Sequence record: PZ871095.1
Reading direction: 5' to 3' (one strand)
Length of the DNA: 44,927 nt
Source: a phage
Below, one piece after another: positions 6,144 to 39,966 of the stretch (position 1 is the stretch's first letter; every line of letters begins with the position of its first letter). Under the pieces are notes generated by a model. That model saw nothing but the letters and a program-made list of their open reading frames with translations, ran no database searches and was not told where the DNA came from. A program made the position numbers and the translations under genes.

Positions 6144-6178
6144 TTTGTTTTCCTTCATATCTCTGTTGGTGTGCAACC

Positions 6179-6208
6179 AATATAATGCAACCAACATACG
6201 CAATGCAA
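6179..6208 (-). promoter_or_regulatory. putative sigma70-type promoter for the minus-strand gene pair (TTGCAT-N18-TATATT)
   Basis: Minus-strand reading cgcTTGCATtgcgtatgTTGGTTGCATTATATTGGTTGCAC; contains two copies of the recurring TTGGTTGCA motif; about 30 nt upstream of the ATG at 6143. Confidence 0.4.
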
Positions 6209-35866: not shown

Positions 35867-35914
35867 TGTCTCGTCCTCTAAAAATAGGCCCGCAGATTAG
35901 CGGGCCGGATAATA

Positions 35915-36427
35915 TTAGTCTTCCAGTTCGAAATAGGTTTCTACAATTTCTTTCAGATCTTTGTGGAAGTCTTCTACGTCGTCATCTTCCAGTTTTGCGA
36001 TTGATTTGATCTCGAACGCTTCCAGCAGGTCGTCAAATTCGTCGTTGGCATCGTCGTCATCACCACCGGCGATAATCGCGGCATACTGTTTGATTTCGTC
36101 GCGCATCTCTGCCAGCGGGTCGGCATCTTTCTTGCCTTTGCCTTTCGCCGGAGCTTTTTTGGTTTTCGCCGGTTTTTCGTCTTCGGCTTCTTCATCGTCG
36201 TCATCTTCTACGACTTCTTTTTTGGCCTTACCTTTAGCCGGTGCTTTTTTGGTTTTCGCCGGTGCTTCGTCTTCAGCGTCGTCATCTTCTACGACTTCTT
36301 TTTTCGCCTTAGATGGCTTTTTATCTTCCTGCTTACCAACGGCAGCGCCAACGGTTTCATAATGCTTAGCGATGGTTTCCAGTGCTACTACGCCGCGTGT
36401 AATCAGGTTTACGATTTGTTCAAACAT
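35915..36427 (-). CDS. acidic repeat-containing early protein
   Basis: 170 aa; first gene after the leftward promoter; about 50 D/E residues, internal imperfect tandem repeat (KKEVVEDDD..EDE.PAKTKKAPAKGK twice), very acidic C-terminus. Confidence 0.6.
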   Translation of the reverse strand: MFEQIVNLITRGVVALETIAKHYETVGAAVGKQEDKKPSKAKKEVVEDDDAEDEAPAKTKKAPAKGKAKKEVVEDDDDEEAEDEKPAKTKKAPAKGKGKKDADPLAEMRDEIKQYAAIIAGGDDDDANDEFDDLLEAFEIKSIAKLEDDDVEDFHKDLKEIVETYFELED

Positions 36428-36625
36428 GTTTTATATCTCCGATTGGTTAAGTTTAGGTGTCGACCATTAACCTCGTCGGTGGCCTTAACATATTGCCAGG
36501 TTACGCGTTCTCCCTTTCGGGTAGTGGACCTGGTTATATAATCACGGTTGGGAATCCTGACACTTCGATCCGGCCCCTGCGTTGCCCCTCTCCAGTTTGC
36601 GTCCTGCATCCTGTCGACGAGGTGC

Positions 36626-36654
36626 ATATTAGATTGGTTGCAGAAGGGAGTCAA
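36626..36654 (-). promoter_or_regulatory. putative leftward early promoter (TTGACT-N17-TAATAT)
   Basis: Minus-strand reading TTGACTcccttctgcaaccaatcTAATAT; near-consensus sigma70 hexamers with 17-nt spacer containing GCAACCAA; heads the leftward gene block. Confidence 0.5.
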
Positions 36655-36663
36655 CAACTAATT

Positions 36664-36698
36664 TAAAAAAAAGCGCCGAAGCAAAATGCGACGGCGCT
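36664..36698 (-). terminator. rho-independent terminator on the minus strand (AGCGCCG stem, T9 run)
   Basis: Minus-strand AGCGCCG-tcgcattttgctt-CGGCGCT followed by TTTTTTTTT, just upstream of the early leftward promoter in the divergent control region. Confidence 0.6.
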
Positions 36699-36827
36699 AA
36701 CCAATAAGAGACAATGAGACGGGGGTATTATTACACGCGTGCGCGCCCGTTTCAATATCCAAAGGATTTGACACCGTGCCGTTTTGGGTGTAGTTTCGTT
36801 GGTCATTAACCAACTGAGGGCAGAGCA

Positions 36828-37157
36828 ATGAATGTAAACGACGCAATCGAAATGTTAACGAAGACTGTTTGCAGTGAGACAAGCCGGTCATGGGCATACA
36901 CCGATGCCGTGGGGGCTGTGTTATTTGAAATCGAACGACTGCGGCTTACCGAAAAAGAATTGCGCGCCAGGCTGGAACTACTCAACGGTACAGCAGCAAG
37001 CAAGCTGCAAAAGCACAATGAAGAAATGGAAGAATACAAAAAGCAGGTTATCCGTTTGCGCGACGAAGGGAAATCATGGGCGATGATTGCCGAGTTGACC
37101 GGAATTAATCAGAGCACAGTGCGCTCCTGGGTACGCAATAATAAAACTTCTAAGTAA
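36828..37157 (+). CDS. putative HTH DNA-binding regulator
   Basis: 109 aa; C-terminal KSWAMIAELTGINQSTVRSWV resembles a helix-turn-helix; first rightward gene of the divergent control region; GAGGG ribosome-binding site. Confidence 0.6.
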   Translation: MNVNDAIEMLTKTVCSETSRSWAYTDAVGAVLFEIERLRLTEKELRARLELLNGTAASKLQKHNEEMEEYKKQVIRLRDEGKSWAMIAELTGINQSTVRSWVRNNKTSK

Positions 37158-39909: not shown

Positions 39910-39938
39910 TTGCACACCCCCAGGCGTCCTGCTATATT
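39910..39938 (+). promoter_or_regulatory. putative sigma70-type promoter (TTGCAC-N17-TATATT) flanked by two TATTGGTTGCACACC repeats
   Basis: -35 and -10 hexamers with 17-nt spacer about 30 nt upstream of the ATG at 39967; the -35 lies within one TTGGTTGCA copy and the second copy follows the -10. Confidence 0.4.
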
Positions 39939-39966
39939 GGTTGCACACCAACATGAGGACTGAACA

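Follow-up and report, generated by a model that had tools for sequence, protein, structure and literature searches.

The window analysed here, the whole 44,927-nt stretch of sequence record PZ871095.1, derives from a member of the genus Dhillonvirus, the HK578-like virulent siphophages of E. coli. The rightward set of long open reading frames begins at 36828, reaches the end of the window and resumes at position 1 to finish at about 24047; the leftward set occupies 36427 down to 24074. This split makes 36428–36827 the sole divergent intergenic region of the window. Its left neighbour is a gene for a 170-amino-acid acidic protein, to which no function was assigned; on the right lie genes for a 109-amino-acid helix-turn-helix (HTH) protein and then a 754-amino-acid helicase-primase. 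The genes of the leftward operon are those of DNA metabolism, not late genes, and the operon also holds an internal terminator at 35906..35887. No gene was found in a search for tRNA and tmRNA. The 901 bases around the locus match 176 phage records, the best of them at 96%. A local minimum of GC skew at about 36.5–36.7 kb is uninformative as a marker of the replication origin because the direction of transcription switches at the same place. Dhillonviruses, among them HK578 and Bas15-17, are now standard test phages in studies of defence systems. In HK578, mutants that escape the OLD defence map to replication-initiation functions in this region, and a deletion in the gp45-gp46 promoter region alters the interaction of the phage with OLD (bioRxiv 10.64898/2026.07.10.737580).

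The features recognised in and around the intergenic region are listed below from left to right, minus-strand features being written in their direction of reading.

36450..36431, minus strand: translation-initiation region of the acidic-protein gene, UUAACCAAUCGGAGAUAU (inverted repeat I1), complementary to the predicted short RNA at −17.2 kcal/mol
36619..36456, minus strand: structured leader RNA of ~160 nt, beginning where transcription from the leftward promoter is predicted to start
36654..36626, minus strand: leftward early promoter, TTGACT-17-TAATAT, conserved among relatives and annotated in HK578
36634..36641, plus strand: copy of the motif TTGGTTGC in the spacer of the leftward promoter, a candidate operator half-site
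36672..36655, minus strand: A/T tract (T8 + AAATTAG + TTG), spanning about −54 to −37 relative to the leftward promoter
36672..36665, minus strand: run of eight T residues (T8), the first of which can close the stem of the hairpin
36698..36672, minus strand: terminator hairpin AGCGCCG-uc-GCA-uuu-UGC-uu-CGGCGCU, with a 7-bp G+C-rich stem, a 2x2 internal loop and a 3-bp apical stem
36720..36699, minus strand: 22-nt single-stranded body of the predicted RNA, a candidate seed; invariant, and unpaired in the centroid fold
36720..36665, minus strand: predicted non-coding RNA of ~56 nt, 5'-GUCUCAUUGUCUCUUAUUGGUU-hairpin-U8, deduced from the positions of promoter and terminator
36735..36727, minus strand: extended −10 element TGtAATAAT, 17 nt from the −35 hexamer; invariant in 22 distinct relatives
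36755..36750, minus strand: −35 hexamer TTGAAA of a 10/12 sigma-70 site; invariant in 22 distinct relatives
36768..36796, plus strand: rightward promoter, TTGACA-17-TAGTTT, which drives the HTH–helicase-primase operon and is annotated in HK578
36799..36813, neither strand in particular: palindrome TTGGT-N5-ACCAA, a candidate operator, covering the site at which transcription from the rightward promoter is predicted to start
36806..36832, plus strand: translation-initiation region of the HTH gene, with complementarity to the predicted short RNA (predicted −19.1 kcal/mol)

The initial annotation had placed three elements between the acidic-protein and HTH genes, namely a promoter, a hairpin followed by a T-run and a second, early promoter, and all three are present on the minus strand in that order. 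The first had been given as TTGAAA-N16-TAATAA at 36715-36742. This promoter exists, and its coordinates have to be moved, having been set about 13 nt too far to the left. The TAATAA hexamer with a 16-nt spacer (36733..36728) belongs to the same site, which reads better as AATAAT (36732..36727) with a 17-nt spacer and a TG dinucleotide (36735..36734), so that TTGAAA-17-TGtAATAAT spans 36755..36727. The predicted short-RNA promoter thus has the features that define the extended −10 class of sigma-70 promoters, a TGn motif joined to the −10 hexamer and a −35 hexamer at 17 +/- 1 bp. It is one of two sigma-70 matches of at least 10/12 in the 45-kb window and the only one of these with the TG extension (0.23 expected window-wide); promoter-like sites of at least 9/12 are not enriched in the region, three having been found against 1.8 expected. 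A single metagenome copy carries the −35 variant TTGAAT. The relative L013 has a 2-bp deletion in the spacer and hence a poor −35 spacing, and the promoter there would have to lean on the extended −10 element. The palindrome CACGCGTG in the promoter spacer was considered as a repeated operator and was not enriched. Three pattern-predicted promoters, the short-RNA promoter among them, are annotated here in the RefSeq record of HK578, and the terminator is annotated in the records of WF5505 and CS16; among the records and literature searched, none joins promoter and terminator into an RNA gene.

The hairpin had been reported with a run of nine T residues (36664-36698). The hairpin itself was recovered, and the run counts eight. 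With a G+C-rich stem-loop followed directly by U8, 36698..36665 has the make-up of an intrinsic (Rho-independent) terminator, and it is unidirectional, the plus strand being without a T-run after the stem. A consensus terminator scan, which was limited to loops of at most 8 nt, missed it solely for its larger loop. The predicted folding energy is −16.3 kcal/mol (z = −3.2; 1 of 200 shuffled sequences folds as well). The length of the T-run is 8–12 in the 22 relatives and 8–14 when metagenome copies are included, and never below eight. Pairing of the stem is kept across four haplotypes (40 of 40 cells paired, 100%), with two compensatory double changes (G-C to U-A and G-C to C-G) and one change of A-U to G-U, which is located in the apical stem. 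Since a G-U pair in the RNA of the minus strand corresponds to a C-A mismatch on the plus strand, the constraint acts on the minus-strand RNA rather than on the DNA duplex. A single clade, comprising the four haplotypes, accounts for all of these changes, which so amount to a single evolutionary event or lineage; in a shuffle control, the observed covariation values were reached in 33 of 500 shuffles and are thus exceptional only to a modest degree.

From the position of the −10 hexamer alone, the predicted RNA would start at about 36720. Its conservation was assessed in 22 distinct relatives collected through protein and BLAST searches, and in further metagenome copies. All 22 positions of the body are invariant in the 22 relatives, save for a 1-nt deletion in one clade, while the six nucleotides just upstream of it (36721-36726), around the predicted start, vary freely. 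Because hexamers, body and T-run are invariant while adjacent positions vary, and because the stem covaries, selection is indicated on the unit made up of promoter, RNA and terminator. These sequence elements, their conservation and the covariation of the stem are direct observations, and, judged from the sequence comparison, the phenomenon is real and under selection. The suggestion of the initial annotation that the promoter and terminator might yield a very short RNA is thereby given support, which comes from the invariant −35 and extended −10 elements, the 22-nt body, a T-run of at least eight and the compensatory and strand-specific changes of the stem.

Rfam searches returned nothing at the gathering score over the whole window; at E <= 10, only chance-level, terminator-shaped matches (E = 0.2-3) were obtained in 36380-36880. 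A search with an exact 17-mer taken from the body gave 20 matches in IMG/VR and 85 in metagenomes, and those that carry the hairpin lie in Dhillonvirus-type contexts only, the rest being chance matches. A literature search found no Dhillonvirus transcriptome; in the RNA-seq papers that mention Dhillonvirus, it was other phages or uninfected cells that had been sequenced.

The near-consensus early promoter reported at 36626-36654 was confirmed as described. In most relatives its −35 hexamer is TTGACA, and its −10 hexamer varies among TAATAT, TATTAT and TATCAT, with T1, A2 and T6 always kept, which is the pattern expected of working promoters. The T-run of the terminator and the −35 hexamer of this promoter are separated by 10 bp (36655-36664), a stretch that is invariant in the relatives. 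The earlier proposal that the terminator insulates the early promoter fits this geometry and is compatible with the production of a short RNA, since a terminator whose T-run ends 10 bp before the −35 hexamer would shield the leftward promoter from being run over. The same sequence may have a further role. Relative to the leftward promoter, T8 covers about −54 to −47 and AAATTAG the positions from −46 to −40, and we infer, from the published E. coli consensus, that the tract is UP-element-like; compared with that consensus (about −40 to −60, T-tract distal and A-tract proximal), the match in the proximal subsite is partial.

On the other side of the short-RNA promoter, the rightward promoter has conserved hexamers and a spacer that varies among relatives, with a predicted start at about 36803. 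Its −35 hexamer (36768-36773) and that of the short-RNA promoter are 12 bp apart, and the predicted starts are about 83 bp apart. RNA polymerase covers about −55 to +20 of a promoter, so that at these distances the two footprints must overlap, and competition between the promoters is probable. Perfect TTGGT-N5-ACCAA palindromes occur three times in the window (6166, 36799 and 39937), each just past a −10-like hexamer. The motif TTGGTTGC is present in 20 exact copies, mostly at promoter-like sites, against about 1.4 expected in the window. TTGGTT / AACCAA, a motif with strong enrichment over the window, lies at 36443, 36634, 36698 and 36807.

The short RNA is complementary to the translation-initiation regions of both flanking genes. 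Among 4431 sense-strand windows, the predicted duplex with the HTH mRNA segment UUAACCAACUGAGGGCAGAGCAAUGAA (−19.1 kcal/mol) falls in the top 0.3%, and that with the acidic-gene segment (−17.2 kcal/mol) in the top 1.8%. Against 1000 composition-matched shuffles of the short RNA, pairing with the HTH region gave p = 0.005-0.015 for four alleles (0.010 for that of the window), and pairing with the acidic-gene region p = 0.002-0.003 for the two main-type alleles (0.002 for that of the window) and 0.048 for the L013 clade. Where a longer HTH variant is present, the 5' region is unrelated in sequence; there the values were p = 0.078 for HK578 and p = 0.022 for CHD5UKE2, in which a perfect 10-nt match to the short RNA extends over the AUG. 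Only part of each region would pair (7+6+7 or 8+7 bp), at a distance of about 100 and 270 nt from the RNA. On the plus strand, the complement of the body resembles a duplicate of the HTH initiation region (TAACCAA-TAA-GAGACA-ATGAG), and the two target regions have UUAACCAA in common, which within the window is found at these two initiation regions only. In a window-wide target scan the best non-self duplex reached −24 kcal/mol and shuffled seeds −23 to −30 kcal/mol, so that energy alone singles out no target. Compensatory changes between the short RNA and the target regions were sought and none was found. Moreover, the conservation of the body and the shared UUAACCAA could partly reflect a DNA-binding protein, since UUGGUUA matches the recurring TTGGTT / AACCAA motif. 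Pairing with one or both of the flanking genes, as predicted from this complementarity, is possible without being the expected outcome. That the ~56-nt RNA is a dedicated trans-acting riboregulator, which pairs with the Shine-Dalgarno and start-codon regions of the first genes of both divergent early operons, is put forward tentatively and may well prove wrong.

The interpretation that we consider the most likely, with somewhat better than even confidence, is that 36665-36755 is a self-contained, genus-conserved gene for a non-coding RNA of ~56 nt. The unit would be best described as a genus-specific short phage regulatory RNA with built-in insulator and promoter-competition roles. In this scheme, unmodified host RNA polymerase would read the near-consensus extended −10 sigma-70 promoter TTGAAA-17-TGtAATAAT, start near 36720, copy the invariant 22-nt single-stranded segment GUCUCAUUGUCUCUUAUUGGUU and stop at the G+C-rich hairpin and at least eight U residues, giving a transcript of about 56 nt. 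The terminator would halt transcripts 10 bp ahead of the leftward −35 hexamer, thus sparing that promoter, which its T-tract and AAATTAG would also supply with an UP-like A/T tract. The back-to-back short-RNA and rightward promoters would compete for polymerase, and the likeliest role of the RNA itself would be to pair with the ribosome-binding regions of the HTH and acidic-protein genes and so damp their translation. In this scheme the start and end of transcription, the insulation of the leftward promoter, the competition between promoters and the pairing with targets are all deduced from the sequence.

The geometry would also be explained by a promoter that acts as a decoy, competing with the rightward promoter for polymerase and thereby fixing how strongly the HTH–helicase-primase operon is expressed, and a terminator that serves as insulator and source of the A/T tract, the RNA itself being a functionless by-product. 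The overlap of the polymerase footprints (−35 hexamers 12 bp apart, starts about 83 bp apart), the rank of the short-RNA promoter as the best sigma-70 match in the window and the invariant 10-bp stretch before the leftward −35 hexamer all agree with this explanation, and the effect of the HK578 gp45-gp46 promoter-region deletion on the OLD interaction shows that expression from the region matters. A by-product, however, need not keep its sequence, yet the body is invariant at 22 of 22 positions next to neighbours that vary, and it is complementary to both flanking initiation regions above composition-matched chance. The decoy covers the geometry but not the invariant body, and is regarded as unlikely, though less so than the explanations that follow. 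The body could also be constrained as DNA, if the locus consisted of protein-binding sites (operators or iterons, possibly a replication origin), the inverted repeat acted as DNA and the resemblance to a promoter and terminator were incidental. The enriched TTGGTT / AACCAA motifs, four of which lie at or near the locus, and the perfect palindromes at three promoters point in this direction, as do the adjoining helicase-primase gene, the local GC-skew minimum and the mapping of HK578 OLD escape mutants to replication-initiation functions here. Against this, the motif accounts for just 7 of the 22 invariant positions of the body, and a GC-skew switch is expected anyway where the direction of transcription changes. 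Nor would binding sites in DNA explain that the A-U to G-U change of the apical stem preserves pairing solely in the minus-strand RNA, that at least eight T residues are kept directly after the stem despite length slippage, or that the −35 and extended −10 elements are invariant at the correct spacing. This explanation is considered improbable.

Slightly less probable still is a regulated attenuator, in which the short-RNA promoter would be a second, upstream promoter of the leftward operon and the terminator would be passed with the help of a phage factor, in the manner of lambda PR'-tR', Q and 6S RNA. A strong terminator does lie within about 56 nt of a strong, constitutive-looking promoter, both precede the operon in its own orientation, and the operon holds the further internal terminator at 35906..35887. 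What makes an attenuator unlikely is that a conserved promoter belonging to the operon itself follows directly after the terminator and that no TAnnnT −10-like pause element is visible in the first 25 transcribed nucleotides; the downstream genes, moreover, belong to DNA metabolism and are not late genes. As to a coding function, a 47-codon minus-strand open reading frame (36806..36663) is present in the window, and some records annotate it as a hypothetical protein; phage CHD5UKE2 is among those in which its equivalent is annotated. It was rejected as a gene: indels put the relatives in three frames after about residue 16-27, with lengths of 7 to 71 amino acids, and it would start within the 5' region of the HTH gene, which runs in the opposite direction. 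A plus-strand frame of 31 amino acids (36714-36809) spans the same two indels. The chance that the 47-codon frame encodes a real small protein is negligible, and the predicted short RNA, located between two divergent promoters, overlaps no conserved gene.

If the short non-coding RNA is accepted as the preferred reading, its closest known analogue would be the OOP RNA of phage lambda, a 77-nt transcript from pO that down-regulates a neighbouring regulatory gene by base-pairing, and whose promoter matters for replication control (PMC12197685). Both would be short phage RNAs made from a host-type promoter that leads straight into an intrinsic terminator beside replication genes. OOP RNA, however, is cis-antisense and overlaps the 3' end of cII, whereas the short RNA is wholly intergenic; lambda is temperate and the Dhillonviruses are virulent, and there is neither sequence similarity nor an Rfam match. 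The RNA at 36665-36720 overlaps no gene or leader on the opposite strand and so is not of the cis-antisense (OOP or sar) type; since it overlaps no conserved gene, any target pairing would be imperfect and in trans. In phage P22, the small sar RNA acts by blocking ribosome binding at the start of a regulatory gene (PMC12197685). A similar target is predicted for the short RNA, but sar is encoded on the opposite strand and is perfectly complementary to its target, whereas here the complementarity is only partial.

In its layout the predicted RNA resembles DicF, IsrK, Pas and similar trans-acting sRNAs of enterobacteria and prophages: it would be transcribed from a promoter of its own, and its conserved C/U-rich 5' segment, which is single-stranded, is followed by a terminator hairpin that ends in a long U tail. 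Hfq-associated sRNAs typically have this architecture. As regards binding to an RNA chaperone (Hfq or ProQ), the long U tail and a U-rich stretch before the hairpin are suggestive. In contrast to DicF, IsrK and Pas, the RNA would be made by a virulent phage, and its candidate targets are the phage's own neighbouring genes. The lambda PR'-tR' unit (6S RNA, Q) likewise has a strong promoter directly into a terminator upstream of an operon; it differs in that here a separate conserved promoter follows the terminator, a pause element is lacking and the downstream genes are not late. Small RNAs of virulent Pseudomonas phages have been mapped by ONT-cappable-seq and are reported to be short intergenic non-coding transcripts with a defined start site and terminator, as the present RNA is predicted to be (PMC10914365). 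Those RNAs were discovered by experiment and this one is predicted; the hosts differ and there is no homology.

The RNA, if real, would be made from the best sigma-70 match of the window, inside a replication-operon control region tied to OLD sensitivity. To our knowledge, the regulatory RNAs of virulent coliphages beyond T4 are almost unexplored. Escape mutations and engineered deletions in the 90-bp module would have to be interpreted differently if it combines overlapping promoters with an RNA gene and a terminator-insulator, and the module could be used as a compact natural promoter, terminator and insulator part. Should the pairing with both initiation regions be true, the best host-type promoter match of the window would set the amounts of replication-initiation and early proteins at the RNA level, and a virulent siphophage would possess a trans-acting anti-initiation RNA, with promoter competition and insulation built into the same 90-bp module. 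The wider region lends itself as a well-defined test bed, in which 400 bp hold three promoters, a palindrome that resembles an operator and a leader RNA that is structured and mobile.

This leader RNA, which the leftward promoter would feed, may be the most novel object of the region and deserves a study of its own. No Rfam match was obtained with the copy of the window or with that of phage Arya, and no copy was found in E. coli genomes; of three matches to the leader in genome collections, two were chance. An extra helix, pairing a CCGUGA block with P6, was dropped when no single register held across sequence types. The leader is present in one copy in each of 172 phage records from several unrelated genera, carriers including Dhillonvirus, Warwickvirus, Changchunvirus, Murrayvirus, Arya, MQ-4, IME279 and others, and is absent from some Dhillonviruses. 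It always starts a few nucleotides past a −10 hexamer, ahead of unrelated genes, and it contains two CAGGAU motifs. Covariation in its helices is rich: one 6-bp stem occurs in nine versions and a second stem in four, and two further helices show matched changes.

The transcript predicted for the leftward early promoter begins with a structured leader RNA of about 160 nt, the 5' end of which coincides with the predicted +1.

36456-36619, minus strand: structured leader RNA

Copies are present in sequences from other phages and contigs (L129, 1383-1624; L130, 1428-1661; L131, 1440-1640; L132-L140; and L142), and the helices show strong covariation, one 6-bp helix being found in nine versions and another helix in four. 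GGGGC/GCCACC in some copies is matched by GGAGC/GCUACC in others, and the leader carries two copies of the motif CAGGAU.

A single copy of the leader was found in each of 172 phage records from unrelated genera, with a 52-nt core that is 86-94% identical; the carriers include Warwickvirus, Changchunvirus, Murrayvirus, Arya, MQ-4, IME279 and others, while some Dhillonviruses are without it. In every case a -10 hexamer lies just 5' of the leader start, and the genes downstream are unrelated among the carriers. No match to the leader was found in Rfam, and a search of E. coli genomes returned zero copies. The leader looks like part of a promoter-leader module that is exchanged horizontally. A full copy is also present in contig QFQS01000013.1 (L142), which at 42.8 kb is of phage-like size and is labelled as a Cereibacter sphaeroides MAG; the contig probably comes from a phage and ended up in a bacterial MAG through binning. 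In phage Sponge (L020) the leader is longer at its 5' end by approximately 27 nucleotides, which repeat AACCAATCTATC and GCAAACTGGAGAG; this extra segment is a local duplication at the promoter/leader junction.

Two types of operator-like sequence recur in the window. The 8-mer TTGGTTGC occurs at 20 exact sites in the window against approximately 1.4 expected, in nearly all cases at promoter-like intergenic positions and commonly in pairs (e.g. 6173, 6187, 25301/25313, 26968/26985, 33741/33757, 36634, 39445/39499/39534, 39906/39937 and 43286/43309). One copy falls between the -35 and -10 hexamers of the leftward early promoter, and the 8-mer is probably a half-site for a phage transcription regulator. 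The second type is the perfect palindrome TTGGT-N5-ACCAA, of which there are three.

6166-6180: palindrome
36799-36813: palindrome, overlapping the predicted +1 of the HTH/helicase-primase promoter
39937-39951: palindrome

All three have a -10-like hexamer immediately 5' and a start codon 15-25 nt 3'. The palindrome is a candidate operator, possibly serving the autoregulation of the 109-aa HTH protein.

Further features lie on either side of the control region.

35887-35906, minus strand: strong terminator-like hairpin, seven G-C pairs followed by TATTTTT
35915-36427, minus strand: acidic-protein gene
36828-37157, plus strand: gene for the 109-aa HTH protein

The acidic protein matched no Pfam family, its sole family match being PHROG 3127. 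Its gene contains a direct repeat of about 81 bp (near 36197-36214 and 36278-36295), which encodes KKEVVEDDD...KTKKAPAKGK twice and is annotated as a repeat_region in the record of phage welsh. The hairpin lies directly 3' of this gene and has been annotated in the WF5505 record as well. Since it falls inside the leftward operon, the downstream genes require either read-through or promoters of their own.

In public records the 109-aa protein is named transposase, resolvase or 'recombination nuclease inhibitor Gam', labels which look like annotation drift; its only domain matches are to short HTH domains (HTH_23, Sigma70_r4_2 and HTH_28) in the C-terminal third. HK578 and CHD5UKE2 encode a longer variant of 142-149 aa, in which both the N-terminus and the 5' region differ.
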